Shown: positions 8,080 through 31,783 of the stretch, piece by piece
How positions within the stretch are numbered: the stretch's first letter is position 1
Layout: each line of letters begins with the position of its first letter
Program-made: the position numbers and the translations under genes
The notes under the pieces: model-generated
What the model was told of the DNA's origin: nothing
The model's database searches: none
Seen by the model: the letters and a program-made list of their open reading frames with translations, nothing else
NCBI RefSeq assembly: GCF_000010625.1
Contig: NC_010296.1
Coordinates: forward strand, 2,730,001 to 2,762,000
Reading direction: 5' to 3'
From: Microcystis aeruginosa NIES-843
Lineage (GTDB): Bacteria; Cyanobacteriota; Cyanobacteriia; Cyanobacteriales; Microcystaceae
Length of the DNA stretch: 32,000 bases

Positions 8080-9117
8080 TTATCTCAGTTGAATGTATTT
8101 GGGTCGGTCGAACAGGTGAACGGTATCAACAAAGCGAGCGGTTTTCGATTGGGTGGAGATAACCAAGCTTTGGGTACGAGCGCCACCATGGAAGAAGCGT
8201 ACCCCTTCCATCAGGGTGCCGGGGGTGATCCCACAGGCGGCAAAGAGGACGGTTTCGCCACTGGCTAATTCTTCGCAACCGTAAACGCGATCGGGATTAG
8301 TGATGCCCATTTCTTGCAGACGAGCGAGATTACCCTCGCGGCTTTCGCCGATTAAACCGGTTTTGACCACTTCGGGATCATAGATTAATTGTCCCTGGAA
8401 GTGACCGCCTAGACAACGCATAGCCGCCGCCGAGATTACCCCTTCCGGAGCGGCACCGATACCCATGAGAGCATGAATATTAGTTCCCGAAAAAGCGCAG
8501 GAAATAGCGGCCGATACGTCACCATCGCTGATCAGACGAACTCTGGCCCCGGCGTTGCGGATTTCTTGGATTAATTCCTTGTGACGGGGACGATCCATAA
8601 CTACTACCACCAGTTCTTCGATCGAACGATTGAGACAATCGGAAAGGACTTTCAGGTTTTCCGTCGCCGATTTATTAATATCCACATGACCTTTAGCTGC
8701 TGGGGGAGCGGCTAATTTTTTCATATAAAAGTCAGGAGCGGCGAATAACCCACCTTTTTCGGAGATAGCTAACACGGCCATAGAACCATTTTGACCGTAG
8801 GCGACCAAGTTAGTGCCTTCGCAGGGATCGACGGCGATATCGATTTCGACTAATTCGTCGGGATTACAATATTGTTTGGCATCAACTTGGGTACAGATAC
8901 CCACTTCTTCGCCAATATAGAGCATGGGAGCTTCGTCTCTTTCCCCTTCTCCAATAACGATGCGACCGCGCATATGAATTTTATTCATCCGTTCGCGCAT
9001 CGCTTCTACAGCGACGTGATCGGCGGTATTTTTTTCGCCTTTACCCATCCACTTCGAGGAGGCAATGGCAGCCTGTTCGACCACTTCGATAATTTCTAAC
9101 CCTAGCGTACTTTCCAC
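8080..9117 (-). CDS. glpX: Class II fructose-1,6-bisphosphatase / sedoheptulose-1,7-bisphosphatase (GlpX type)
   Basis: GTG start with GGGAGGA upstream. [44 protein letters not shown] and [20 protein letters not shown] are typical of the cyanobacterial bifunctional F-I enzyme. Confidence 0.95.
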
Positions 9118-13191: not shown

Positions 13192-13312
13192 CCAACGAAT
13201 CACTAACCGCTAAAAAGGGAGTGGGGAAAACAAAACTCCCCGCTGCCCCCTGCCTATTCCCAGACTTGCCCCGATCCGATACAATTAAACGGTTGTCTTG
13301 GAAGAATTAATA

Positions 13313-14608
13313 GTGATCGAGCGTTATACTCTCCCTGCAATGGGGAATTTGTGGACGGATAGATATAAATATCAAACATGGCTAGAGGTAGAGATAGCCG
13401 TCTGTGAAGCGCAGGCAGAATTAGGCTATATTCCCGGGGATGCAGTGGAAGAAATTAAGGCAAAGGCTAATTTTAATCCTGATCGCATTTTAGAAATAGA
13501 AGCAGAAGTGCGCCACGATGTCATCGCCTTTTTAACAAATGTTAACGAGTATGTGGGCGAGCCGGGGCGTTATATTCATTTGGGTTTAACCAGTTCCGAT
13601 GTACTAGATACTGCCCTGTCCTTACAATTAGTCGCCAGTTTAAACCTGATTCTAGAACAATTAGAAGATTTTATTCAAGCCCTGCGCTATCGCGCCCAAG
13701 AACACCGTTATACAGTCATGGTAGGACGTTCCCACGGCATTCACGCCGAACCGATCACCTTTGGCTTTAAACTAGCGGGATGGTTAGCGGAAGTGCTGCG
13801 GGGACGCGATCGTTTAATTCGCTTGCGCCAAGACATCGCCATCGGTAAGATATCCGGTGCAGTGGGAACCTATGCCAATATTGACCCGAAAATTGAGGCG
13901 TTAACCTGTCAGAAGTTAGGATTAGAACCGGATACCGCTTCCACTCAAGTGATATCGCGCGATCGACACGCCGATTATGTGCAACAATTAGCCTTATTAG
14001 CGGCTTCGATCGAACGTTTTGCCGTGGAGATTCGCAACCTGCAAAGAACCGATGTCCTAGAAGTGGAAGAATACTTTTCCAAAGGACAAAAAGGCTCCTC
14101 CGCTATGCCCCATAAACGTAATCCCATCCGTTCAGAACGCTTAACGGGAATGGCAAGAATTATCCGTAGTCATAGCGTTTCCGCCTTAGAAAATATCGCC
14201 CTCTGGCACGAAAGAGATATTTCCCATAGTTCCGTAGAACGGGTGATGCTGCCGGATGTTTGCATTTTGACCCACTTTATGCTGAAGGAAATCACCGATT
14301 TAGTCAAAAATCTGCTGGTGTATCCCGAAAACATGAAGCGAAATATGAATGTTTACGGTGGCGTGATTTTCAGTCAAAGAGTTCTTTTAACTTTGGTGAG
14401 TAAGGGAATTAGCCGGGAATCTGCCTATAAAATCGTCCAAGAAAACGCCCATCGCGCTTGGAACACCGATAACGGCAATTTTAAAGCTTTTATCAGCCAA
14501 GATGAGCGAGTTACCGGCATTTTATCCCCCGACGAGATCGAAAGTTGCTTTGATCCCCAGCAGCACTTGAATCATCTTAATAGCATCTACCAAAGGTTAG
14601 ATATTTAA
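13313..14608 (+). CDS. purB: Adenylosuccinate lyase
   Basis: (V)IERYTLPAMGNLWTD, HLGLTSSDVLDTA, and the fumarate-lyase signature GSSAMPHKRNP. I prefer the GTG at 13313 over the in-frame TTG at 13298 because homologues begin MIERY. Confidence 0.95.
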   Translation: MIERYTLPAMGNLWTDRYKYQTWLEVEIAVCEAQAELGYIPGDAVEEIKAKANFNPDRILEIEAEVRHDVIAFLTNVNEYVGEPGRYIHLGLTSSDVLDTALSLQLVASLNLILEQLEDFIQALRYRAQEHRYTVMVGRSHGIHAEPITFGFKLAGWLAEVLRGRDRLIRLRQDIAIGKISGAVGTYANIDPKIEALTCQKLGLEPDTASTQVISRDRHADYVQQLALLAASIERFAVEIRNLQRTDVLEVEEYFSKGQKGSSAMPHKRNPIRSERLTGMARIIRSHSVSALENIALWHERDISHSSVERVMLPDVCILTHFMLKEITDLVKNLLVYPENMKRNMNVYGGVIFSQRVLLTLVSKGISRESAYKIVQENAHRAWNTDNGNFKAFISQDERVTGILSPDEIESCFDPQQHLNHLNSIYQRLDI

Positions 14609-14652
14609 GGAGCGAATTAGGGAATAGAGAAGCGGGGGTGATCGAGATAGAG

Positions 14653-14925
14653 ATGAAAATTTTATCGGTAGAAGACGATCAAGCGATTGGGCGATTACTT
14701 TCAGACACCCCCAGCGCCGATAACTATACCGTGGACGTGGCTGCGGACGGAAAAACTGACTGGGAAACGATCAAACGATAGGAGTAATATCTACTGGTGT
14801 TAGATAGAGGAGTAGGACGGTCTCAGGCTTTGTCGGTGGGGGAGGGTGTGGATTGTTCCTTCTAAGCGCATTAGTTGCCCGTGATGCTCCAATCTGTATC
14901 TGAAGAACAGTTATAATTCTTGGTT
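14653..14925 (+). pseudogene. Decayed response-regulator receiver-domain remnant
   Basis: MKILSVEDDQAIGRLLSD...YTVDVAADGKTDWETIKR, then in-frame TAG and TAA, then YLLVLD. After a frame change it reads ALVARDAPICI (compare LTARD). The remnant ends at the IS630 junction. Confidence 0.7.
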
Positions 14926-14934
14926 ACTAATGTA

Positions 14935-16077
14935 ATACCATTTTTCTAAATTCCTGACAGACATAGAGCTTCTAAAATCCAAGACCATCCCGTCAAATAC
15001 CCGATCGTGTCATTGGATAGAGAATTTAAAAGATGGTAAAGTTTACTTCTTAAGTTATCAAGGGAGTTAAAATTGCCCCAGGCCAATAGGTTTTTCAAAT
15101 ATAGCCAAACTCTCTCAATTGGATTTACTTCTGGACAATAGGGAGGTTGATAAAATAGGATAATATTATCAGGTATTTCTAGGTCGGTCGCCGTATGTGC
15201 GGGAGCATTATCTAATTGAATAATATGTAATTCCTCAGAAAAAGCTTGAGAAAAAAGCGTTAAATATTGATTAAAACATTCCCCATCTAAATGAGAAAAT
15301 TCATAGAAAAAACTGCTACCTGTTCGAGGTTCTATTAAACCATAGAGCCAGAGATATTGAAAATTATACTGAAAATTACCAAGGGGCTTTATGCCTTTAA
15401 TTGTTATTTTATCTCTGACAATGGTATGACAGCCGAAGCGACTTTCATCTTGACACCAGAAGCGGACTTTTAAATATTGACTAACTTTTTCAGATTCCTT
15501 TTCTAGTAAAGCTTGTAGCTGTTCAGATAGATTATTTTGGAATATTTTTACTTCTCCTGGTAATTGTTTTAAATTTTGAGGTCGAGCCACTTTTAATTTA
15601 GCTTGTAATTCATTTCTTACGAGACGGTAAACAGTTATATAACTGGTGGGTATTTCTAAAATAATTGATACCCAAAAATGAATTTCTTTATAACTTTGAA
15701 ATCCTTCTGGGTCTTTTAATTCATTCTGAATTAGAGCGGCTTCTTCCACTGAAATCTTTTTGGGTCTTCCCAGTTTTTCTGGTTCTGACAAGAGATTTTC
15801 TATCCCTCCTTCTCGATAACAACTTAACCAGCGATGAATAGTTCTTTCTGAGCGTCCTATTAACACGGCGAGATGACGAACCGTTTCTACCTCCTTAATT
15901 TTTAGTAGATACAGGGATTGTACTTTAGCAAAGTTTAAAGAGGTTACTTGTTGCTTCAACAAGGATTTTAAGTCTTCTACTGACTCAGCAACATTAATAT
16001 TAGGGACTCCACTCATTGCCTTTTTACCACACAAACTATACCTTTACCAAGTATGACATACTTTTTGAAAAATGGTA
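14935..16077 (-). mobile_element. IS630-family insertion sequence, copy 1
   Basis: Inverted termini are ATACCATTTTTC (14935-) and GAAAAATGGTA (-16077). TA occurs at both junctions, allowing a 1-nt offset. One transposase ORF lies inside. Confidence 0.8.
14946..16016 (-). CDS. IS630-family (Tc1/mariner-like DDE) transposase
   Basis: An N-terminal HTH (RTIHRWLSCYREGGIENL) is followed by CQDESRFG, IQLDNAPAHT and YCPEVNPIERVW. The ATG at 16016 is preferred over the track TTG at 16034. Confidence 0.9.
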   Translation of the reverse strand: MSGVPNINVAESVEDLKSLLKQQVTSLNFAKVQSLYLLKIKEVETVRHLAVLIGRSERTIHRWLSCYREGGIENLLSEPEKLGRPKKISVEEAALIQNELKDPEGFQSYKEIHFWVSIILEIPTSYITVYRLVRNELQAKLKVARPQNLKQLPGEVKIFQNNLSEQLQALLEKESEKVSQYLKVRFWCQDESRFGCHTIVRDKITIKGIKPLGNFQYNFQYLWLYGLIEPRTGSSFFYEFSHLDGECFNQYLTLFSQAFSEELHIIQLDNAPAHTATDLEIPDNIILFYQPPYCPEVNPIERVWLYLKNLLAWGNFNSLDNLRSKLYHLLNSLSNDTIGYLTGWSWILEALCLSGI

Positions 16078-16094
16078 TAAGTTTGGGGAACACT

Positions 16095-16808
16095 ATGAGC
16101 AACCAAAAATTAAAAAAAATAATTAATTATCATTTATCAAAAGTCCTCGAATATAATGCTTTTGAGCGTTTTGAAGGTGTCACTGACAAGAGTAGTTTTC
16201 TTAATATGATTGGTAATGATCCAGCTTTTGCTCCTTTTTTTCTTAATGATACTAAATACGTTACAGCAAGGATTGGAGGGAACCTAATTACTAGCCTCCA
16301 CCGTAAACTTGGTGATATGTATGAGGAAATTTTTCAGACACTATTAGCAGATAAACTTAATATATCTTCGGAAGATTTATCTTATAGTCTTATGCTAAAT
16401 ATTGACAACAAATCACAGAAACGTTCTACCGATGGATTAATCAGCTACTCAAAATTATCTTTAGAGAATGCTAGACGTATTGAACAGTTAAAAACGGATA
16501 AAACAGCGATTGGGATGGCTTTTGAAGTACGTTCTTGCTATCAGATTGGTGACTCAAAACGCATACAGGCTGACCGAGACATGGCTCTAGCACTAAATAA
16601 TAAAAAAATAGAACCAGTCATGATTATTTTTTGCTCATCTTCTTTGACCAGTCCTGTAAGGCGTCTAAGAGAATATTGGAAAGTCTACGAGGGGGACAAT
16701 GCTTTTGAGTTTGTCAAACTGCTGACAGGGTTTGATTTACTCAGCTACTTCAAACAGGAAGATAAGTTAATACGAGAAATTATGGACAAGATTTTTGACA
16801 TGATGTAG
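16095..16808 (+). CDS. Putative type II restriction endonuclease (family not assignable by eye)
   Basis: This 237-aa ORF converges on the methyltransferase gene with a 2-bp gap. It is AT-rich. A candidate PD-(D/E)xK-like region is STDGLI...GMAFEVRSCYQIGDSKR. The start is set at the ATG at 16095 because the track start at 16053 lies inside the IS630 terminal repeat. Confidence 0.55.
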   Translation: MSNQKLKKIINYHLSKVLEYNAFERFEGVTDKSSFLNMIGNDPAFAPFFLNDTKYVTARIGGNLITSLHRKLGDMYEEIFQTLLADKLNISSEDLSYSLMLNIDNKSQKRSTDGLISYSKLSLENARRIEQLKTDKTAIGMAFEVRSCYQIGDSKRIQADRDMALALNNKKIEPVMIIFCSSSLTSPVRRLREYWKVYEGDNAFEFVKLLTGFDLLSYFKQEDKLIREIMDKIFDMM

Positions 16809-16810
16809 TC

Positions 16811-18112
16811 TTAAGCTTTTTTTACACAAATTGCTGTTTCATAGAGTTTCTTCTTACCTCCACGTTTCCGCAAAACAAGAATTTGCTCAACAGCAAAACC
16901 ATTCTTTTCAAAAATTTTACCCAATAATATGTCAGTAAAAATATCAACGCCAGATAGTCTAGAATTGCCAACTATATATGCCCCTCTAAACTTTTTACTG
17001 GTAACTTTGGCAAGTTGAGCTATATGGTTATCCATCATATTAAAATATTTTATGGCGTAGTTACACATCAAGTTATTTTGTGGACGTAACTGGTTAACCA
17101 TCGGCAAAAGTATATCAAAAATATGATCATTTGGGGCTACTTCAATCTCATAAAGCATTGACGTAGCCTTACCCCATGTGCCACCAATTGAGGCACAATC
17201 TAGATCGGCAGATTCAGAAGCCTGTGAGAAAACTTCCATAAAGAAAAGTTGTGGACGAGTAGTATGGACATAACTAAATCTATTAGGATAAGGAGGAGAA
17301 GTAATCACTCTATCTATTGTTTCTTCGACAAAACTAGATAATTGGGTACTATCACCTAGGTAAACTTTTATAGTTCCCCACTTGTCTCTTGTAGATAAAT
17401 GTTTTAGATCAGTGATAATAGCTTCAAAGTTGTCACGGAAGTCTTTCCAAACCTTAATTTCACGGTTATGTTTATCATCAAAACTAATAGTAGGGTGATT
17501 TCGATGAATATTAGCGCAATCTAGAACCGAAGAACACAAAGCTAACCAATAAAGATGTTTATAGTTCTCATTCTCTATTTTCCAAACAGCCCGACGAATT
17601 AGAAGTAACTCTTTTAAAACTTCTTTTCTCCACCATCTAAATACATTGTGAATTGGTGGGATAGTTAATTGATATTTTTCCTCGGCAGTTTCTAAAGACA
17701 AATTCTTCGCTTCATCTAAAGTATCAAGAAGATAATTTTCAAAAGATTGAAAATGTTGAGTTAATTGTTCAAGATCAACTGCCCAAGTCAAGGCATATTC
17801 AGATGCAAGTTTTAGTAATGGATTCAACTCTATGCCTATAGCAAATAGTCCAAGTTTCTTAGCTTCTATTATCGTCGTACCTTTTCCTAAAAAGGGATCG
17901 CACAATACAGTTTTTGATGAACATTCTAAATATTCACATAGAAATCTAACTAATTCAGGAGCATAACTTGGCGTTAGTCTAAACCAACGATGAACAGGTT
18001 CATTAAGACCATTCAAGAAAGTAACATCCCCAAGTTTGGGTGTCAAAAAATTAAACCCTTCTTGAATGTATTGATCTGTGTAACTTGGTTCAAATAATTC
18101 AAGTTGGATCAT
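16811..18112 (-). CDS. DNA methyltransferase, N4-cytosine/N6-adenine family (motif I before motif IV, SPPY)
   Basis: DPFLGKGTT is the FxGxG SAM motif. About 190 aa later comes ITSPPYPNRF (motif IV). The ATG at 18112 has AAGGGAGA 6 nt upstream, so I prefer it to the track GTG at 18169. Confidence 0.85.
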   Translation of the reverse strand: MIQLELFEPSYTDQYIQEGFNFLTPKLGDVTFLNGLNEPVHRWFRLTPSYAPELVRFLCEYLECSSKTVLCDPFLGKGTTIIEAKKLGLFAIGIELNPLLKLASEYALTWAVDLEQLTQHFQSFENYLLDTLDEAKNLSLETAEEKYQLTIPPIHNVFRWWRKEVLKELLLIRRAVWKIENENYKHLYWLALCSSVLDCANIHRNHPTISFDDKHNREIKVWKDFRDNFEAIITDLKHLSTRDKWGTIKVYLGDSTQLSSFVEETIDRVITSPPYPNRFSYVHTTRPQLFFMEVFSQASESADLDCASIGGTWGKATSMLYEIEVAPNDHIFDILLPMVNQLRPQNNLMCNYAIKYFNMMDNHIAQLAKVTSKKFRGAYIVGNSRLSGVDIFTDILLGKIFEKNGFAVEQILVLRKRGGKKKLYETAICVKKA

Positions 18113-18212
18113 CTGATTCTCCCTTGTGTTGATGGTTAGATTCTGTGTGATACTCGGCAAATCTTTCACAAACTAAATTGATTACTCTATCAGCATGAGT
18201 ATAGGTTGCATA

Positions 18213-18479
18213 TTAACTCATAATTTTGTCAGCATATAAAATGGTTTTAAGTTCATCGAGTGAGACTTGATAATATTGGGCAATTTTTTCAAGTAAAGTG
18301 GTATTTAGAAACAAAAGTCCATTCTCTAATTTACTTAAGACAGACTGATCCATATCTAAATCGGCCGCAACCTTCCTAACTAATTTAGCTTTAGACTCCC
18401 GAAGTTCTTTGATTCGTTTGCCAAAGGAACGATAGCCATCGCTTTTTGACATATTTTTTTCTTGATTAATTTTATTCAA
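18213..18479 (-). CDS. XRE-family helix-turn-helix protein, likely controller of the adjacent RM genes
   Basis: FGKRIKELRESKAKLVRKVAADLDMDQSVLSKLENG is an HTH_3 pattern. The gene is co-directional with and immediately upstream of the methyltransferase. The start is either TTG at 18479 or ATG at 18452. Confidence 0.75.
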   Translation of the reverse strand: MNKINQEKNMSKSDGYRSFGKRIKELRESKAKLVRKVAADLDMDQSVLSKLENGLLFLNTTLLEKIAQYYQVSLDELKTILYADKIMS

Positions 18480-18537
18480 GATATTACTGTATCATACTGT
18501 GTTCGCTTCAGTCCACAGTTGCTGGAAGTTTTGCCTG

Positions 18538-18640
18538 AGTGCGATGTCGAAGGCACTACCTAGCAGTACGCCGATTTTGTCGGGTGCGTTTCTTGCTGCA
18601 AATCCGACTAAGCAACTAATCGACGACAGGGAACGCACCC
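18538..18640 (+). repeat. Hairpin repeat copy A (HP family)
   Basis: AGTGCGATG...CGCCGATTTTGTC followed by GGGTGCGTT (18582-18590) pairing with AACGCACCC (18632-18640). Relative to copy B it carries two ~21-nt insertions. Confidence 0.8.
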
Positions 18641-18641
18641 T

Positions 18642-18754
18642 ATGCCATTTTTCTTTATTCGTGGCAGACATTCTACTCCTTTCTCCCTTTTTGGGAGAAG
18701 GGTTGGGGGTGAGGGAAATTAACCATCTCTGCCATTACTTTAGAAAAATGGTAT
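18642..18754. mobile_element. MITE derived from the IS630 copy-1 type element
   Basis: The left end is ATGCCATTTTTCTTTATTCGTGGCAGA. The reverse complement of the right end is ATACCATTTTTCTAAAGTAATGGCAGA. Both match the IS630 copy-1 left end ATACCATTTTTCTAAATTCCTGACAGA. At 113 bp it has no coding capacity. Confidence 0.7.
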
Positions 18755-18768
18755 TAGCAAGATCCTAT

Positions 18769-19470
18769 TCACGTTTCATCAGGATTATCCTCTATATTGT
18801 TGACTTTCGTTAATTGTGGAAAAATATCTCGTACTGCCTCTTCAAATTTTTTGTAGGAAGATAAGGATTCTAATTTCGACAATGGGATGTTTGTACCAAT
18901 CTGTGAATATAAATCGTCAATTTTTAGTTTATTTCGATAGCGTTTAGTAATACCTTCTCTGGCTTTATTGATGGCATTTTTAATCGTTTCTTTCGGATTG
19001 CTAAAAGATTCGGGTTCTTTATCGATTGCTAACTCACTATCACTTTTATTTGTACACAATTCTTTTTTTAGTAATTCTTTGTCTGCTAATATCCAGGCTT
19101 CAGTCATTTGTATTGGAACGATAGCAACTAAATTTTTACATAAGTCTCGCTCGTCTGATTTAATAGCATTAAAAGCCGGATTAATTCTTTCCTTAAATGC
19201 GTTTTTATCTGTTTTATCATCTGCGTCTGCATGGAAGCACAAAACCATTGCTCCCTTCTCCGCCGCTTGAATTGCGTATTTTTTAGCTTTTTCTCGGATA
19301 TTTTCGCCAGAGATTTGTGGAAGACAAATTGGATCAAAAATTTTTATATCTTGTTCATCGTCAAAAGCAACTCTCTCGAAAGTGCGCTGAATAATATTCG
19401 GTAAAAATCTATGATCGGAACTGCCTTCTGTAGCTAAGGCAATAATTATTTGTTTGATTTTTTTTGCCAT
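18769..19470 (-). CDS. Toprim-like (DUF4276-like) protein, putative nuclease partner of the upstream ATPase
   Basis: This 233-aa ORF starts 10 nt after the ATPase stop. An N-terminal beta-strand is followed by Glu (IIIALATEGSSD, E15). CFHADADD (D82, D84, D85) is a DxD-type metal site. Together these give the Toprim signature order. Confidence 0.65.
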   Translation of the reverse strand: MAKKIKQIIIALATEGSSDHRFLPNIIQRTFERVAFDDEQDIKIFDPICLPQISGENIREKAKKYAIQAAEKGAMVLCFHADADDKTDKNAFKERINPAFNAIKSDERDLCKNLVAIVPIQMTEAWILADKELLKKELCTNKSDSELAIDKEPESFSNPKETIKNAINKAREGITKRYRNKLKIDDLYSQIGTNIPLSKLESLSSYKKFEEAVRDIFPQLTKVNNIEDNPDET

Positions 19471-19480
19471 CTTAATTGAT

Positions 19481-20908
19481 TTACGTTAATTGGTTTTGTT
19501 GATTTTTAATATTTTTAATCGCACTTTCAGCATCAGCAGTTTTTAGATATTCGACAACTTCCGAGAGAGTTAGCTTGGCCTCATTTTCGGAGAAAAATAA
19601 GGTTAATTGCTTTTTATTCTCTTTGATAACAGGGTGAAAATTACTGCTTTTCATCTTAATTCGCTTCCCTTCAATAGTGGATATTATAGTGGTAAGTTGA
19701 GAAAGCCAAATGCTGACATTTTTATCATCTTGCCAATTAATTAATTGACTCACCAGAACCGGAGAATGAGTGTTCACTATTACTTGGCGTAAAGGCATTT
19801 CAGTATCTTCAAAATCGACAGTTAGCTCTTTTAATAATCTTGCCATTGCTTGAATACGAAAAGGATGGATGCCATTTTCTGGCTCTTCAAAACACAGTAA
19901 TCCTGTGTGTTGTCGGTCGTATTGCAGGACACATAATGTTAATAAACGTAGGGTTCCTTCGGAAAGCACTCTCGAAGAAAACTCCCGACCATCATCACCT
20001 TTTACCTTGATAATAAATTGTCGATTTGCTTTGTCGTCATAAACATTAACTTCTGTAAGATTCGGTAGCAGATTATTGAGATCACGGGAAATTGCTGTGA
20101 GGGTATATTCATCATCTTGTTTGATGCGAAATAAAGCAGCGGCTAAATTCTTTCCGCTTGCTGTTATTGTATCTCTGATGCCCATATCTTGACGCGTAGG
20201 TTCTCGCAGATCTTCGGGATTAAGCTGCATAAACTTCCAACTCAGCATTTCTTGTTTGGCGGCTAATATATGTTTAAAATCTATGGTATTAATGCTGCTT
20301 AAAACAGTTTGTGATGCGTTTTTTGCGGGAAATACTTTTTTATTTCCTTGTTGACCGTCTTGAGGTACAACAATGGTAGCAATACCATTAATATCTTCAG
20401 TCTTAATATAAGGAATGGCTCTCCTACCCGTTACTACTTTTGGTCGCCAAGTTTCCAATACTGTCTTAGGAATATAATTTTTTACCCAATTATCTTCATT
20501 GTGCTTTAAGTTTTCTAAACTTTCATAAACAATATACAAGTTTTCAAAGCCACTTATATTAGACTCTCGTTTAATTTTTAATTGATAGCGTAATCTTGTA
20601 TATTTAAGATCGACTTCCCCACCCCAATTATCTTTTACCTTGCGATTGACTAACATTTCAACTATAAATTCCATTTCCGTGGCGTAGTCGTCCTCATCAT
20701 ATTGGGTAAAAAGTTCGCTAGGATGTCCTCGTTGCTCGCTAAAAGCCGTCTTCAGATCCACTTCTGCCAGCCGCGCCAACAATTGCAAAGCATCAAATAA
20801 ATTACTCTTACCAGAAGCATTAACCCCAGCAACTACAGTAAGCGGCGTGAATACCATTTCAAAATTATGAAAGGATTTAAAGCCATGAATTTTAATATAA
20901 GTAATCAT
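19481..20908 (-). CDS. ABC/SMC-type ATPase of the OLD/AriA/GajA-like group (AAA_15/AAA_21-like)
   Basis: Walker A is GVNASGKS (aa 28-35). A signature-like LSEGTLRLL follows, then Walker B/D-loop LLCFEEPENGIHP and H-loop NTHSP. A long insertion lies between the N- and C-terminal ATPase halves. Confidence 0.8.
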   Translation of the reverse strand: MITYIKIHGFKSFHNFEMVFTPLTVVAGVNASGKSNLFDALQLLARLAEVDLKTAFSEQRGHPSELFTQYDEDDYATEMEFIVEMLVNRKVKDNWGGEVDLKYTRLRYQLKIKRESNISGFENLYIVYESLENLKHNEDNWVKNYIPKTVLETWRPKVVTGRRAIPYIKTEDINGIATIVVPQDGQQGNKKVFPAKNASQTVLSSINTIDFKHILAAKQEMLSWKFMQLNPEDLREPTRQDMGIRDTITASGKNLAAALFRIKQDDEYTLTAISRDLNNLLPNLTEVNVYDDKANRQFIIKVKGDDGREFSSRVLSEGTLRLLTLCVLQYDRQHTGLLCFEEPENGIHPFRIQAMARLLKELTVDFEDTEMPLRQVIVNTHSPVLVSQLINWQDDKNVSIWLSQLTTIISTIEGKRIKMKSSNFHPVIKENKKQLTLFFSENEAKLTLSEVVEYLKTADAESAIKNIKNQQNQLT

Positions 20909-21025
20909 AGTTTTAGGCGATAGGTAATATTAAAACATCAGCGCAATATTTAACCATACTGGAAAATCTTCTCAACTTTCGCCTGATACTGTCCTACTAT
21001 AATCTAGACATTGGTTTACAGAGGT

Positions 21026-21090
21026 AGTGCGATGCCGCCGATTTTGTCGGGTGCGTTACCTGCCGCAACGAGGGAGAACGCACCTTACTG
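21026..21090 (+). repeat. Hairpin repeat copy B (HP family)
   Basis: AGTGCGATGCCGCCGATTTTGTCG followed by GGTGCGTT (21050-21057) pairing with AACGCACC (21077-21084). Confidence 0.8.
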
Positions 21091-21310
21091 ATCGATTCCT
21101 GAGAGTATAGGGTCTTAGTCTAACAAAACCCATAGACAACAGCTTATCTGGCTGACGGCCGACGGCTGAGGACCGGCGGCTAAAAATTAACATTGCAAGA
21201 AAACTTAACAATTGGCCAAGAAACTCGATCGAGTAGGTAGAATAGCAAGTAAATCATTTTGTAAACTCCAACCGATTAATTAACCAGAATAGAGATAACC
21301 CAGAACGCCT

Positions 21311-21841
21311 GTGATAGATAAAAGACGCACTACTCGCGATCTCCCCCAAATTAACGAAAGAATCCGCTTTCCCGAAATCCGCGTTATCGATAGCGACGGC
21401 TCTCAACTAGGAATTATTACTCCTGCCGAAGCTTTACGCGTGGCCGAAGAAAAGGAACTTGATCTCGTCCTCGTCAGTGAAACGGCAAGTCCTCCCGTTT
21501 GCCGGATTATGGACTATGGTAAGTACAAGTTTGAACAGGAGAAAAAAGCGCGTGAAGCCAAGAAAAAACAGCATACAGCCGATATAAAAGAAGTTAAAAT
21601 GCGCTATAAAATCGATGAGCATGACTACAACGTGCGAGTCAACCAAGCGCAACGTTTTTTAAAAGCGGGAGATAAGGTAAAAGCGACGATTACCTTCCGA
21701 GGCCGGGAAATTCAACACTCTAACCTAGCGGAAGAATTACTGGCGCGCATGGCCAAAGATTTACAGGATGTGGCTGAGGTACAGCAAGCGCCAAAAAAAG
21801 AAGGTCGTAACATGATGATGATGTTATCGCCGAAAAAATAA
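21311..21841 (+). CDS. infC: Translation initiation factor IF-3
   Basis: [44 protein letters not shown] and [14 protein letters not shown]...TFRGREI. There is no ATG at the N-terminus, so the start is GTG 21311 or the adjacent ATA 21314. Confidence 0.93.
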
Positions 21842-21847
21842 CTAACT

Positions 21848-22055
21848 AGGGTCTGCTGAAAAAGTTTTTCCTAGGGGCAGGGTGTAGGGTGTGGGGTGTG
21901 GGGTTTTACCCATTTTCATCGGGTAAATTACCTAATTTTCAGGGAAAAAGTCCAGGGATTTCCCCCCGACCACTCCCATATCTGGTACTTTTTGATTGAC
22001 AAAAAGTCTAAAAGTCTTACCCAACAAGGTTTTTAGATTTATTCAGCTAACCCTA
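21848..22055 (+). mobile_element. MITE-Y, full copy
   Basis: Termini are TAGGGTCTGCTGAA and TTCAGCTAACCCTA (inverted). TA occurs at both junctions around the GGG...CCC core. An internal GGTGTRG heptamer run is present. Confidence 0.75.
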
Positions 22056-22063
22056 ACTAATCC

Positions 22064-22097
22064 GGAAAAAGGGGCTAAGACCCCTTTTTTGTTTTTC
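22064..22097. terminator. Possible bidirectional intrinsic terminator between infC and phoX
   Basis: AAAAAGGGG CTAAGA CCCCTTTTT is a perfect 9-bp hairpin with A/T tracts on both sides, but only four G:C pairs. Confidence 0.4.
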
Positions 22098-22137
22098 AGA
22101 AATCCGGAAAGGAAACCAATAATTTAAAACAAATGTA

Positions 22138-24345
22138 TTATCCAGATTTTGACTCAATTCGCCGAATCGCCACCACTGCCGGCCGGGGAGGTTGATTAAC
22201 TTGACCACTGGGCCAATTCGACCCTAGGGGTACTTGTCGTATTTGTTCAAATTCCTGCCCATTAGTGGTTTTAAGGGCAAATTTGCGGTTTTCAAAGGCC
22301 AAATCCCGACGAATTCCCCCCGCTTCCCCCGGATGTTGTACTGCCAAAAATAACGTCTCTTGGTCGGGAGTAAAGTACAATCCCGTTAATTCCGCATCCA
22401 TGGGAGCGATAGCAAAAGGATAGGGATGCTCTTGACCCTTGGCAAACACCCAAGCGCTATTATTGCCAAAAATACCCAATAAATCCCGTTGACTAACCGG
22501 GACACCTTGGGGATAACGAGTTTTCATCTCTCGATTTAACCCACCCGTGGAAATATCGCTAACCATCCAGAGATTTCCCTGTTTATCGAAAGCGAGGTTA
22601 TCGGGATTAGAAAAACCCTCACCTTTCTCTGTCGGTTCCCCTCCATAAGCGACCACATCCCAACGAAAACTTAAGGAAGCAGCATCGTTATTATCTTCCC
22701 TTAAGCTGATAATCCAACCAAATTCGTAGGGTATTTCGCCATTTGGCCCCTTAAATATTTCCTTATCGGCTCCTCCCTCCGCTTCACTGGGACTACCAGA
22801 GGTAAAGGTCATATATAAAGTGCCATTCTCGTCCACTTCCGTATCTTCCGGGCGACCAGTACAAGTGACCCCAACGGCGTTAGCGGCAAAATGAGCATCG
22901 ATGAGAATTGCCCCCTGTTTTTCCGTCCTATTACCTTCATACAGGTCTGCGAGGGTCTTATATTTAGCTTTGTAGGCCAGAATCTCCTCATCGTCCTTAA
23001 ATAGCAGTAATTTAGTATCATTGACCGTTCTTTCGGGATTCGGCAAGGCTACCACCCCATCCCCGCGACTAGCGGCAATTTGACTCGGTAGGACGGGATT
23101 TATCTCCGTGTCGGGATTTAAGGGTATCCAATAACCGGTTTTATCGGCGTTGAATTTGGCCCCGTAGAGCATTCCTTTTTCTAGGAGTTTTGAGTTATTT
23201 TTCTGCTTAATATCGCTAATTTTGCCCTCCGAAACGAATTTATAGATATGACCGCCTCTGCGATCGCAACCTGAATAAACCGCCAAGGGTTGCCCCGTCC
23301 GAGGGAGAAAAGCGACCGCTTCATGGCGAAAACGCCCTAACCAAGTGTGTTTTGTGCCGTAATCGTCGGGATTGGCCGGATCCACCTCCACCATCCAACC
23401 GTATTTATTTCCTGCTAACCCGAAGACGTTACCCCGGCCATCCACTTCCGAACTATTGAGAATAAAGGGGGTAGTATCGGGATGCAAAGAGGAACCATCT
23501 TTTAACACTACCTCGGTCACTTGGTCTTGAAAGTTCTCCTCGGCACTAAATACAGTCCCCCAAGGCGTTGTTCCCCCGGCGCAATTTTGCAACGTTCCGA
23601 TAATTTTTGCCCCTAATCCGTCATCGTAGCCAAGTTTATCGGTTTTGGTAAAAATTGCTACAGCAGGACCGGTCGTTTTCAGGTAGTGACCGTCCTTTAG
23701 TCCAGAGATACCGGTAATGCGGCGATCGGCTTTACTATAGGTACGTTGCCATTTTCCCGTTTGATCTTTAGCCAGGGAAATTACGCCAATTCCCTGATCA
23801 ATTAAGCCTTCTAGGGATATTTCCTCGATTTTTGCCTTTAAGCTGGCATCTTGCAGGTGATAGGCGGCAATTTCACCCTTTTCATTCGTTTTTTCCCGTA
23901 CTTCCTTGACGGGTAGGGTTTTACCGATCACTTGTTCAAAGGTTTGTAGCCAAGTACGACCACTGATATATTCAAAATTAACGGTTAGATAACCTTGACC
24001 CGGACTGGTTTCGATAAAAGATAGATAATCATTGTTATAACCGAAACGGGAATCACCCACTGCATCCCCCCACTGGGCCAGCACATCATAGGTGAATCCT
24101 TGCGGAAGAACGAGATCATCTAGGACTTTATAGGTTTGATAGGCACTTTTTTGGCTTTCATCGCTCATGCCGTCAATTTTTAAGGGAATCGGCAGTTTGA
24201 CTGCAGCAAAGTTTAACCCGAAACTATTGGCAGCGATCGCAGGACTGCTGATCAGAGAGGAAGATTTTTTCTCTTGCAGACTGAAAAAAGAGACACCAGC
24301 AGTGGCAGTTAAAAAGGTGAGGAAATTACGGCGAGAAATACTCAT
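22138..24345 (-). CDS. phoX: PhoX-family alkaline phosphatase (DUF839), Tat-exported
   Basis: The twin-arginine signal is MSISRRNFLTFLTATAGVS. The motif NCAGGTTPWGTVFSAEEN is typical of PhoX. Beta-propeller-like repeats are present. A Pho-box promoter lies upstream. Confidence 0.85.
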   Translation of the reverse strand: MSISRRNFLTFLTATAGVSFFSLQEKKSSSLISSPAIAANSFGLNFAAVKLPIPLKIDGMSDESQKSAYQTYKVLDDLVLPQGFTYDVLAQWGDAVGDSRFGYNNDYLSFIETSPGQGYLTVNFEYISGRTWLQTFEQVIGKTLPVKEVREKTNEKGEIAAYHLQDASLKAKIEEISLEGLIDQGIGVISLAKDQTGKWQRTYSKADRRITGISGLKDGHYLKTTGPAVAIFTKTDKLGYDDGLGAKIIGTLQNCAGGTTPWGTVFSAEENFQDQVTEVVLKDGSSLHPDTTPFILNSSEVDGRGNVFGLAGNKYGWMVEVDPANPDDYGTKHTWLGRFRHEAVAFLPRTGQPLAVYSGCDRRGGHIYKFVSEGKISDIKQKNNSKLLEKGMLYGAKFNADKTGYWIPLNPDTEINPVLPSQIAASRGDGVVALPNPERTVNDTKLLLFKDDEEILAYKAKYKTLADLYEGNRTEKQGAILIDAHFAANAVGVTCTGRPEDTEVDENGTLYMTFTSGSPSEAEGGADKEIFKGPNGEIPYEFGWIISLREDNNDAASLSFRWDVVAYGGEPTEKGEGFSNPDNLAFDKQGNLWMVSDISTGGLNREMKTRYPQGVPVSQRDLLGIFGNNSAWVFAKGQEHPYPFAIAPMDAELTGLYFTPDQETLFLAVQHPGEAGGIRRDLAFENRKFALKTTNGQEFEQIRQVPLGSNWPSGQVNQPPRPAVVAIRRIESKSG

Positions 24346-28796: not shown

Positions 28797-29075
28797 ATGC
28801 AATTTGAGTGGGACGAAGCGAAAAATATTGAAAATATTCGTAAACATGAGATTGATTTTGCTGATGTTCCCACGATGTTTGATGGAGAAATGCTGATTGA
28901 GCTAGATGATCGTTTCGACTATGGCGAAGATCGCTGGTTTGGGATCGGTTTTCTCGGTTCTGGAATAGCAGTAGTAGTCTGGACGGAACGTCAAAAAAAT
29001 GTAACCCGAATCATTTCAGCGCGAAGAGCCAACCGTCATGAGCAGAAACGATTTGAACAGTACCTCTCGTACTAA
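28797..29075 (+). CDS. brnT: BrnT-family (DUF497) ribonuclease toxin
   Basis: FEWDEAKNIENIRKHEIDFADV...DRWFGIGF...RIISARRANRHEQKRF is the BrnT pattern. Confidence 0.85.
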   Translation: MQFEWDEAKNIENIRKHEIDFADVPTMFDGEMLIELDDRFDYGEDRWFGIGFLGSGIAVVVWTERQKNVTRIISARRANRHEQKRFEQYLSY

Positions 29076-29316
29076 TTGGGCAGCTTTAGAGTCAAGGTCA
29101 GAAGAGAATATCGACTACTCAGATATTCCGCCGCTGACAGATGAATTTTTTGAACGAGCTACTTTACGTATTCCAGCAGATCAAGCACACAACCTAGTTC
29201 AGCTTGATCCAGATGTGAAACAGTGGTTTCAGGCTCAAGGAGAACAGTATAAAACCCTAATAAACAAGGTTTTGCGTCAATATATGGAAAGCAACCAAAC
29301 TCAGCACCAAGCATAA
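29038..29316 (+). CDS. brnA: BrnA-like antitoxin (DUF4415-type)
   Basis: The gene overlaps the brnT 3' end by 38 nt. IDYSDIPPLTDEFFERA...VQLDPDVKQWFQAQGEQYKTLINKVLRQYM is the BrnA/DUF4415 pattern. Confidence 0.8.
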   Translation: MSRNDLNSTSRTNWAALESRSEENIDYSDIPPLTDEFFERATLRIPADQAHNLVQLDPDVKQWFQAQGEQYKTLINKVLRQYMESNQTQHQA

Positions 29317-29439: not shown

Positions 29440-29490
29440 AGTGCGATCGCCGATCTTGTAGGGTGCGTTAATGAAATGTAACGCACCTTA
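29440..29490 (+). repeat. Hairpin repeat copy C (HP family)
   Basis: AGTGCGATCGCCGATCTTGTAG followed by GGTGCGTTA (29462-29470) pairing with TAACGCACC (29479-29487). Confidence 0.8.
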
Positions 29491-29748: not shown

Positions 29749-30126
29749 ATGGCACTGGCATCGAATGGACAAACAGCTATAATCCGCACAGAGCGAGGGC
29801 TTACAATTGCGGATACTCGTATTACTCTGTATGACGTGATGGATTATCTCAAAGCTCAGTATCCACCCAAGTTTATTCGTGATGCCTTCAATCTTACAGA
29901 TGCTCAGATTCATGCCGCCCTTTCCTACATTGAAACACATCGAACAGAAGTGGAAGCAGAGTATCAGGAGGTTTTAAAGACTGCCGCAGAAACTAAACAA
30001 TTTTGGGAAGAGAGGAATCGCGAACGTTTTGCTCGGATCGCTGCTACTCCTCCTCGTCCAGGCTATGAAGCGGTTAGAGCTAAACTTCAGGAACGGAGAG
30101 CAAAGCGGGAAGCGAAGAAGCAATGA
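29749..30126 (+). CDS. DUF433-domain protein (antitoxin-like HTH)
   Basis: ERGLTIADTRITLYDVMDYLKAQYPPKFIRDAFNLTDAQIHAALSYI is the DUF433 pattern. A basic coiled C-terminal tail follows. Confidence 0.75.
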   Translation: MALASNGQTAIIRTERGLTIADTRITLYDVMDYLKAQYPPKFIRDAFNLTDAQIHAALSYIETHRTEVEAEYQEVLKTAAETKQFWEERNRERFARIAATPPRPGYEAVRAKLQERRAKREAKKQ

Positions 30127-30515
30127 TTGTTCTGGCTGATTACAACTTGAATCGGCAGGCAATTCTGATCTCTGGAAGTCTTGTTGTTAGCGGGTTATTA
30201 GATCTCGCTCTAATTCGGTTGAGGACATTTGAAGACGTTGGCTTACCCGCAGACAGCAATGATCGAGTAGTTTGGAGATTTGCCCAAACCAACGGGATGC
30301 TCTTACTTACGGCAAACCGGAATGCGAAGGGTGAAGACTCGTTGGAACAAGTAATGCGTGAAGAAAATCAACCGACTTCATTTCCGATCATTACGATTGG
30401 CGATCCGGATAGGGTCAATGAATCTGATTATCGAGAACGCTGCGTTGAAAGGCTTGTAGAAATTGTGATCGATATCCAAGACTATATGGGGGCTGGTCGG
30501 TTGTTTATTCCATAA
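30123..30515 (+). CDS. DUF5615-like (PIN-like) protein, putative toxin partner of DUF433
   Basis: An ATGA start/stop overlap links it to the upstream gene. MIVLADYNL...DRVVWRFAQTNGMLLLTANRN follows the DUF5615 pattern. Confidence 0.65.
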   Translation: MIVLADYNLNRQAILISGSLVVSGLLDLALIRLRTFEDVGLPADSNDRVVWRFAQTNGMLLLTANRNAKGEDSLEQVMREENQPTSFPIITIGDPDRVNESDYRERCVERLVEIVIDIQDYMGAGRLFIP

Positions 30516-30645: not shown

Positions 30646-31783
30646 TACTTTGCACGGCTACAACTTGCATTTTTTACTCAAGGACAATAATATAGTTTAA
30701 GAGTCATAATTAGAAGCAAAGCACTCATTGAAAACATGATTAACCTAGAATTCACCGAAGAAGAAAAGAACTCACTGTATTATGAAAGATTTCATCATCC
30801 TCATCCCCGGGTTCAACTTAAGATGGAAGTTCTTTGGTTAAAGAGTCAAAAGATACCGCACCAAAAAATTTGTCAGTTAGCAGGAATCTCGCCAAATACC
30901 TTATTAACTTATCTTCGAGATTATCAAGAAGGCGGAATAGAAAAATTAAAAGAAATCAACTTCTATCGCCCTAAAAGTGAATTAGAGTCTCAAAGAGAAA
31001 CGCTCAAAAAATATTTCGAGAAAAATCCACCAGTCACAATAAATGAAGCTGTATATAGGAGAGAAGAATTGATGGGAATAAAACGAAGTCCTACCCAAGT
31101 GAGAAAATTTTTAAAATCAATGGGAATGAAATGTTTAAAAGTAGGTTCTCTTCCTTCTAAAGCTGACCCAGATGAACAAGAGGACTACAAAGAAAAAAAG
31201 CTAGAACCCAGACTAAATGAGGCTAAAGAAGGAAAAAGGGCTGTTTTTTTTGTTGATGCCGCTCACTTCGTCATGGGAGCATTTCTCGGTTTTGTTTGGT
31301 GTTTTGAGAGACTTTTTGTTAAGTCACCGAGCGGGCGTAAACGCTTCAATGTTTTAGGAGCATTAAATGCAATAACTCATGAAGTTATTCTGGTTACGAA
31401 TGACACTTATATTACAGCAACTCAAGTCTGTGAACTCCGGTCAAAAATAGCTGCTTTAGGACTAATGATTCCCATCACTCTCGTATTAGATAATGCCCGC
31501 TATCAGAAATGTAAAATTGTTGAAAAATTGGCTCTTTCTTTGTCAATAGATCTACTCTATCTACCGTCTTATTCGCCTAATCTAAATTTAATTGAAAGGC
31601 TGTGGAAATTTGTCAAAAAGAAATGTTTATATGGTAAATATTATGAAAACTTTTCTGACTTTTCTTCAGCCATTTATGAATGTTTGAATGATGCCCATCT
31701 GAAACATAAAAAAGAACTGGATTCCTTGCTGACTCTACGATTTCAGAAGTTTAATAAATCTCAGATTATGAACGTCTAAAGTA
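30646..31783 (+). mobile_element. IS630-family insertion sequence, copy 2
   Basis: Inverted termini are TACTTTGCACG (30646-) and CGTCTAAAGTA (-31783), matching at 9 of 11 positions. The element is directly flanked by TA on both sides (30644-30645 and 31784-31785). Confidence 0.85.
30736..31779 (+). CDS. IS630-family (DDE) transposase
   Basis: The N-terminal HTH is ICQLAGISPNTLLTYLRDYQEGGIEKL. It is followed by FFVDAAHF, LVLDNARYQKC and YSPNLNLIERLWKFVKK. Confidence 0.9.
   Translation: MINLEFTEEEKNSLYYERFHHPHPRVQLKMEVLWLKSQKIPHQKICQLAGISPNTLLTYLRDYQEGGIEKLKEINFYRPKSELESQRETLKKYFEKNPPVTINEAVYRREELMGIKRSPTQVRKFLKSMGMKCLKVGSLPSKADPDEQEDYKEKKLEPRLNEAKEGKRAVFFVDAAHFVMGAFLGFVWCFERLFVKSPSGRKRFNVLGALNAITHEVILVTNDTYITATQVCELRSKIAALGLMIPITLVLDNARYQKCKIVEKLALSLSIDLLYLPSYSPNLNLIERLWKFVKKKCLYGKYYENFSDFSSAIYECLNDAHLKHKKELDSLLTLRFQKFNKSQIMNV

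Follow-up and report, generated by a model that had tools for sequence, protein, structure and literature searches.

A chromosomal ABC ATPase–DUF4276 gene pair of Microcystis aeruginosa in the candidate anti-phage family HEC-01

What kind of system is the two-gene module that lies beside infC on the chromosome of Microcystis aeruginosa NIES-843? The module sits within a stretch of 32,000 nucleotides (nt) (NCBI RefSeq assembly GCF_000010625.1, contig NC_010296.1, positions 2,730,001 to 2,762,000 of the forward strand; hereafter the window, in whose numbering all its positions are given) and pairs an ATPase of the ATP-binding cassette (ABC) type, 475 amino acids (aa) long, with a 233-aa DUF4276 protein. 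An initial annotation of this DNA had read the pair as a candidate OLD- or PARIS-like two-gene defence module and as a distinct, possibly uncharacterised branch of such systems. Here, on the basis of profile matches that run nearly end to end, we assign the pair to HEC-01, a catalogued candidate anti-phage family, of which it is an intact chromosomal member. The defence-module reading is upheld by these matches, although the pair is not PARIS, OLD or Gabija proper, whose defining models it misses. The suggestion of an uncharacterised branch falls away: PADLOC already lists the system type as HEC-01, homologues have been tested against phage with one negative and one positive outcome, and the locus is an ordinary additional member and no new kind of system.

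HEC-01 (Hma-embedded candidate 01) was described as an ABC ATPase with a TOPRIM-like protein, found within Hma systems (Payne et al. 2024 preprint, 10.1101/2024.01.29.577857). Burman et al. (PMC11464382) place DUF4276-associated ATPases in the AAA15/21 tree and list MADS3-4 as an ABC ATPase plus TOPRIM system. The literature searched held no mechanistic study of DUF4276.

Family identity of the gene pair

Both open reading frames (ORFs), their spacer and every motif quoted in the initial annotation translate from verified coordinates, as follows.

19481..20908, minus strand: HEC-01A, 475-aa ABC-type (AAA_15/AAA_21) ATPase
20804-20827, minus strand: Walker A motif GVNASGKS (aa 28-35 of HEC-01A)
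19940-19966, minus strand: ABC signature LSEGTLRLL (aa 315-323 of HEC-01A)
19862-19900, minus strand: Walker B motif LLCFEEPENGIHP (aa 337-349 of HEC-01A)
19760-19774, minus strand: H-loop NTHSP (aa 379-383 of HEC-01A)
19471..19480, minus strand: 10-nt spacer ATCAATTAAG between the HEC-01B and HEC-01A genes
18769..19470, minus strand: HEC-01B, 233-aa DUF4276 protein, putative Toprim-like metal-dependent nuclease
19414-19434, minus strand: Glu motif ATEGSSD (E15) of HEC-01B
19216-19233, minus strand: HxDxD motif in HADADD (D82/D84/D85) of HEC-01B
19093-19110, minus strand: QMTEAW (E124) of HEC-01B
aa 131-228 of HEC-01B: C-terminal helical domain, large and conserved

Among the PADLOC models, the ATPase matches HEC-01A (PDLC04184) at 3.6e-141, with residues 1-461 aligned to profile positions 1-463 of 464, and the partner matches HEC-01B (PDLC04212) at 2.3e-49, with residues 6-220 aligned to positions 2-218 of 222. 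The other matches, to AriA (3.5e-33), mad3, PDC-M07A, AbiLi, Old and GajA, are far weaker. Because the HEC-01A and HEC-01B scores stand far above those of all other PADLOC families, we place the pair in HEC-01; its gene arrangement is also that of the family, with the ATPase gene and a co-oriented gene for a DUF4276/TOPRIM-like partner adjacent on one strand across the 10-nt gap. Pfam and PADLOC profile searches together bear out the initial description of an AAA_15/AAA_21-type ATPase with a partner that is DUF4276-like rather than DUF4435-like.

The ATPase matches AAA_21 (2.3e-32) and AAA_15 (5.1e-21, over profile positions 1-374 of 374), both beyond the Pfam cut-offs, and carries all four hallmarks of an ABC-type ATPase: a Walker A motif, an LSxGxxR signature, a Walker B motif of the form hhhh[DE]EPE and an H-loop. 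Across 76 homologues, the Walker A motif, the LSEGTLR signature, the Walker B motif (EEPENGxHP) and the H-loop (THS) are at least 98% conserved. The N terminus also matches SMC_N, RecF and AAA_23; the RecF/SMC matches cover only ~45 P-loop residues and lie far under the family cut-offs. The partner matches Pfam DUF4276 (PF14103) at 2.5e-9, with 38.1 bits against a gathering cut-off of 30.2, and does not match DUF4435; the DUF4276 match recurs in all 33 members of the partner family. Some of these homologues also give weak Pfam matches to DUF3226 (4 of 33, best 0.0015) and BKACE (10 of 33, best 0.0025), which may reflect remote kinship or chance. Hidden Markov model (HMM) searches of the PDB returned no sequence relative of either protein.

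Several known systems combine similar components. To HEC-01 as described, the likeness is closest: an ABC ATPase gene followed by a TOPRIM-like DUF4276 gene on one strand, with the near end-to-end model matches given above. The Microcystis copy differs in lying outside Hma, beside a Type II restriction–modification (R-M) system at a chromosomal hotspot. PARIS offers the best mechanistic analogy, as there too one gene encodes an AAA_15/21 ATPase and a second one a small putative Toprim effector, but the Microcystis partner is a DUF4276 protein that matches neither DUF4435 nor any AriB model, and the AriA match is ~100 orders of magnitude weaker than that to HEC-01A. PARIS is also typically carried on satellites or prophages, whereas phage and plasmid records hold almost no members of the HEC-01 partner family. 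MADS encodes a related ATPase, Mad3, and a DUF4276 protein, Mad4, and the NCBIfam models MAD3 (5.5e-42) and MAD4 (0.0034) both respond to the pair; their scores, however, reach 144 against 420 bits and 17.5 against 160 bits, respectively, of the equivalog cut-offs. MADS comprises eight genes, of which mad3 and mad4 are accessory, their deletion lowering defence, and mad6-8 are mandatory (10.1101/2023.03.30.534895); mad6-8 are absent at the Microcystis locus, where the neighbours are the Type II R-M system, infC and purB.

OLD nucleases (class 1, P2 Old) and Gabija GajA (class 2) likewise join an AAA_15/21-type ABC ATPase to a Toprim nuclease, and the partner has weak profile similarity to OLD at the Toprim glutamate motif. 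In those proteins, however, the two activities are fused, whereas here they are separate and the OLD-like Toprim model PF20469 is unmatched; nor does a GajB-like helicase gene adjoin the pair. Menshen includes an ABC ATPase (NsnB match 5.7e-17) and NsnC variants with a DUF4276 C-terminal domain (PMC12065111), but is built of three genes, including NsnA, whereas the best 150 relatives of the Microcystis partner stand alone. PARIS, OLD, Gabija and MADS were each considered as the identity of the pair and ruled out, their defining models being missed or falling below cut-off.

The two genes travel together. Scanning genomes with the partner alignment recovered 80 loci in many phyla, and in a tblastn check an ATPase homologue lies immediately upstream of the partner gene, on the same strand, at 86 of 86 loci. 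Phyla with the pair include Cyanobacteria, Bacteroidota, Desulfobacterota, Chloroflexota, Calditrichota and Acidobacteriota, in a patchy distribution. The commonest stop/start junctions between A and B are -4, -8 and -1 nt, the genes overlapping by 1-8 nt in most other phyla as against the 10-nt spacer here, and the frequency of such overlaps suggests translational coupling. Pairwise identities among A proteins track those among B proteins (Mantel r = 0.68 between the two matrices, a value reached by 0 of 999 permutations), with a contribution from shared phylogeny; the co-variation fits co-inheritance without partner swapping.

An exhaustive profile search (E <= 1e-3) collected partner sequences that fall into 1,435 clusters at 50% identity. 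No fusions were seen among the best 150 relatives, all of which are stand-alone proteins of ~220 aa. Of 50,697 phage records, one holds a member of the family, and of 72,556 plasmid records, none does. The lone match in the phage collection, at 8405-9028 of MT836135.1 (43% identity over 89% of the protein), lies on an unannotated 12.6-kb phage-like contig from human faeces.

The DUF4276 partner and the Toprim fold

Is the partner a Toprim protein, as the initial annotation proposed? The AlphaFold2 (AF2) model of HEC-01B (predicted local distance difference test score (pLDDT) 89.8, predicted template modelling score (pTM) 0.86) has a core of strands and helices and, beyond it, a C-terminal domain made of helices. 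The core elements run in the order strand 1 (10-14), helix (23-37), strand 2 (42-44), helix (58-71), strand 3 (76-80), helix (89-104) and strand 4 (114-117), which sets E15 directly after strand 1 and H80-x-D82-x-D84 directly after strand 3, the canonical Toprim positions. In an alignment of 33 partner sequences reaching down to 45% identity, E15, G16, D19, H80, D82, D84, D88, E124 and W126 are invariant. The acidic set first proposed, E15 with D82, D84 and D85, thus stands in part: D85 varies, and the conserved acidic residues are E15, D19, D82, D84, D88 and E124.

A profile comparison gives a weak signal in the same direction. Using hhalign, we aligned a DUF4276 profile (157 sequences) with a profile of the OLD Toprim domain (115 sequences). 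The best local match (E = 0.002) places LATEGSSDhRFL of the partner on LLVEGKTEtnvL of P2 Old, the Toprim glutamate motif, and a relaxed extension sets the partner's HADAD on the ADCD of Old. The score of 27.7 compares with 15.8 for the reversed profile and a maximum of 19.9 over 40 block-shuffled profiles. Alignment of a shallow partner alignment to the single P2 Old sequence yielded nothing, a homologue search seeded with the Old Toprim fragment gave five near-identical fragments, and a scan of viral contigs for Old returned close relatives alone (73-100% identity).

Other results weigh against a Toprim assignment. The hhalign match carries a probability of 14%. In Foldseek searches, neither the full partner model (against the PDB and BFVD) nor a re-modelled core of residues 1-130 (against the PDB) gave a significant match (E <= 1e-3), and the 50 matches listed include no solved Toprim structure. 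Those that are listed represent generic Rossmann-like folds (lumazine synthase, PurE, KaiC and Argonaute MID; template modelling (TM) scores <=0.47, E >=0.004), the sole suggestive match being an RloB-like phage protein at BFVD rank 3 (probability 0.92, E = 0.014). None of the 33 partner-family members matches a Toprim-clan Pfam model, and PF20469 does not match the partner. The proposed Toprim identity is therefore borne out by motif positions and by the weak P2 Old match, and left without confirmation by Foldseek and the Toprim-clan Pfam searches.

Published structure comparisons point to Toprim more firmly: HEC-01B is described as TOPRIM-like, with structural similarity to the Toprim metal site of BpOLD (Payne et al., 10.1101/2024.01.29.577857), and the Menshen analysis places both DUF4276 and RloB in the Toprim superfamily (PMC12065111). 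Any stronger Toprim claim leans on these comparisons, which our Foldseek searches did not reproduce. Taking motif geometry, the weak above-chance profile signal and the published comparisons together, our best reading of the partner is a Toprim-like metal-dependent nuclease.

The infC locus and its neighbours

The pair lies between infC and purB, together with the R-M genes and copies of a Microcystis repeat.

13298-14608, plus strand: purB, flank of the slot
14946-16034, minus strand: IS630-family transposase (DDE_3 and HTH domains), between purB and the restriction endonuclease (REase) gene
16053-16808, plus strand: Type II REase (PADLOC REase_II, 1.5e-66)
16811-18169, minus strand: methyltransferase (MTase; PADLOC MTase_II, 4.2e-31; Pfam N6_N4_Mtase)
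18213-18479, minus strand: helix-turn-helix (HTH) controller (PADLOC Control_protein/HTH; Pfam HTH_3)
18569..18642, plus strand: palindromic Microcystis repeat, copy downstream of the pair
21036..21087, plus strand: second copy of the repeat, between the ATPase start and infC
21311-21841, plus strand: infC, flank beyond the ATPase start
29449-~29500: third copy of the repeat in the window

The R-M system beside the pair (16053..18479) is complete; it forms the context of the HEC-01 module and lies outside it. GC content falls from 0.452 in purB and infC to 0.354 in the pair and 0.341 in the R-M genes, in agreement with the initial placement of the pair next to an R-M system in an AT-rich patch.

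Comparison among Microcystis strains separates the pair from this neighbour. HEC-01 adjoins infC in all 15 Microcystis loci retrieved, while the interval from the pair to purB differs in content from strain to strain. The R-M trio occupies this slot in the window and in three further loci (L001-L003); among nine loci of other Microcystis species (L007-L015), seven lack it beside the pair (L007-L011, L014 and L015), L013 has it on the opposite side of the pair and L012 ~5 kb off. The slot holds a PDC-S09-like 110-aa gene in L007 (2e-21), a gene for a PD-T4-4_A-like 490-aa ATPase in L009 (6.7e-64), with equal-sized ORFs in L011 and L015, and ~5 kb of extra genes in L012, including one for an LmuA/PD-T4-6-like protein (1e-16). 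Because the slot content swaps between strains, we regard the R-M system as an independent hotspot neighbour and not as a partner of the pair. The infC–purB gap behaves as a defence hotspot in Microcystis. Across these loci the partner retains 90-100% and the ATPase 95-100% identity, as against 98-99.5% for infC and purB; the pair evolves faster than the flanking genes.

The Microcystis chromosome AP019314.1 (L001) has an identical ATPase sequence and the same gene order, minus the IS630-type transposase at 14946-16034, which, being missing from an otherwise collinear chromosome, looks like a recent insertion. A second IS630-type transposase, distantly related to the first, lies at 30736-31779 (plus strand). 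In Microcystis sp. BLCC-F210 (L011, 7136-9987), the ATPase gene is split near its 3' end by a ~1.4-kb insertion with an opposite-strand 339-aa ORF, and the HEC-01 system of this strain thus appears to be inactivated.

Outside Microcystis, the 102 immediate neighbours of the pair match 193 PADLOC families at E <= 1e-10, among them DrmMI, Type IIG, DpdF, Hhe, HmaA, BrxH, HsdS and SoFic, whereas 118 genes at least 7 kb away in the same loci match 13, several of them generic. The comparison points to an enrichment of defence genes directly beside the pair, but it is a crude one, since redundant sub-models are counted and the adjacent proteins are longer on average. That crudeness limits the case for defence, and the presence of many housekeeping genes among the immediate neighbours in other genomes counts against a defensive role. 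So does one of the two published assays, in which a HEC-01 homologue in Escherichia coli gave no protection against any coliphage of the panel (10.1101/2024.01.29.577857); a cold-seep metagenome study reported protection of E. coli B by a HEC-01 representative from one or more of the phages T4, T5 and T7 (10.1101/2024.09.26.614923). A Pfam scan found no conserved third gene or recurrent family among the 102 neighbours. Embedding in a Type I R-M system, suspected from the sizes of neighbouring genes (HsdM/S/R), was rejected, as Pfam and PADLOC found no recurrent R-M family among them.

The hairpin repeats said to bracket the pair are real and co-oriented, their 21-nt core being identical (0 chance matches expected), but they belong to a dispersed Microcystis family (core CGCCGATTTTGTCGGGTGCGTT ... 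AACGCACC) that sits in intergenic regions. Microcystis loci hold one to four copies at varied positions, and several strains have a single copy beside the pair. With these variable copies elsewhere and the third copy at 29449, the repeats were rejected as a module-specific boundary or cassette bracket; as a dispersed family they are no evidence that a mobile cassette ends there, and the case for defence gains nothing from them. No Rfam family matched within 14000-22500, repeats included, and promoter and terminator scans gave no signal above shuffled controls. A 59-aa ORF at 18492-18671 (minus strand), annotated as a gene in a related genome, lies wholly over a repeat copy and has no family matches, and is therefore probably not a real gene. 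Near the third copy are overlapping small gene pairs at 28797-29316 and 29749-30515 (both plus strand), for which Pfam labels from the collinear L001 give BrnT toxin/BrnA antitoxin and a DUF433 protein with a 130-aa partner, respectively; both pairs are likely toxin–antitoxin modules.

Proposed mechanism and alternatives

We consider it reasonably probable that the locus is a self-contained two-gene HEC-01 operon in which the ABC ATPase controls the DUF4276 effector by PARIS/OLD-like logic. By analogy with those systems, HEC-01A would act as sensor and regulator in a complex with HEC-01B. A phage cue would shift the ATP-dependent state of HEC-01A, which would then activate or release HEC-01B. 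The acidic cluster of HEC-01B (E15, D19, D82, D84, D88 and E124), with H80, may bind a divalent metal, and the effector would cut nucleic acid and so halt the infection.

A different reading keeps a defence or abortive-infection role but makes the partner something other than Toprim, namely another metal-dependent or nucleotide-binding effector or adaptor with a generic Rossmann-like fold. The generic alpha/beta sandwiches that alone emerge from Foldseek (TM <=0.47, E >=0.004) would suit it, as would the unmatched Toprim-clan HMMs, the lack of a PDB sequence match to the partner alignment and a conserved C-terminal helical domain (aa 131-228) that has no counterpart in canonical Toprim domains. 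We find it unlikely, given that strand 1 is followed by an invariant Glu-Gly and strand 3 by a DxD, exactly at the Toprim signature positions, that the sole above-chance OLD profile similarity falls on the Toprim glutamate motif, with DxD on DxD in the relaxed extension, that the BFVD rank-3 match is RloB-like, and that structure comparisons in two independent papers place the family in Toprim. RecF works with the Toprim protein RecR, and a housekeeping or DNA-repair module, in which a RecF/SMC-like ABC ATPase and a Toprim-like partner act on chromosomal DNA, would account for the SMC_N, RecF and AAA_23 matches of the ATPase N terminus, the one fixed site beside infC in 15 of 15 Microcystis loci, the many housekeeping neighbours in other phyla, the near-absence from phage and plasmid records and the unprotective homologue. 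The RecF/SMC matches, however, comprise ~45 P-loop residues far below cut-offs; the pair has a low GC content (0.354 against 0.452 in its flanks), evolves faster than infC and purB and is patchily distributed over phyla; its immediate neighbours are richer in defence genes than distant ones; and another HEC-01 homologue was positive in a phage assay. A housekeeping or repair role is accordingly quite improbable.

PrrC acts as a guard with EcoprrI, and the pair could in the same way be a non-autonomous guard of the adjacent Type II R-M system, firing when that system is inhibited. Adjacency to a complete R-M system in one low-GC patch, and the discovery of HEC-01 embedded in modification-based systems, are consistent with such a role; the idea is nonetheless highly improbable, the trio being absent beside the pair in L007-L011, L014 and L015, on its other side in L013 and ~5 kb off in L012, and no R-M family recurring next to the pair in other phyla (102 immediate neighbours). 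Returning to the self-contained operon, we also entertain, as a rather unlikely extension by PrrC/PARIS logic, that HEC-01 is the fixed anchor of the infC defence hotspot and a second-line guard that would fire when phage counter-defence disables the neighbouring variable system. It would do so via DUF4276 as a divergent branch of Toprim, equipped with a helical C-terminal domain of its own and acting on a substrate, for example host tRNA, unlike that of OLD nucleases.

HEC-01-type ATPase–DUF4276 pairs are widespread and abundant in environmental surveys, and the two published phage assays disagree. The Microcystis locus is a clean natural case from a cyanobacterium that forms blooms, with an intact pair at a fixed site next to a defence-swapping slot, and its invariant residues (K34 and E342 of the ATPase; E15, D82, D84, D88 and E124 of the partner) can be used for mutagenesis. 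Its value lies in routine annotation and, possibly, as a model for work on cyanophage–host interaction.

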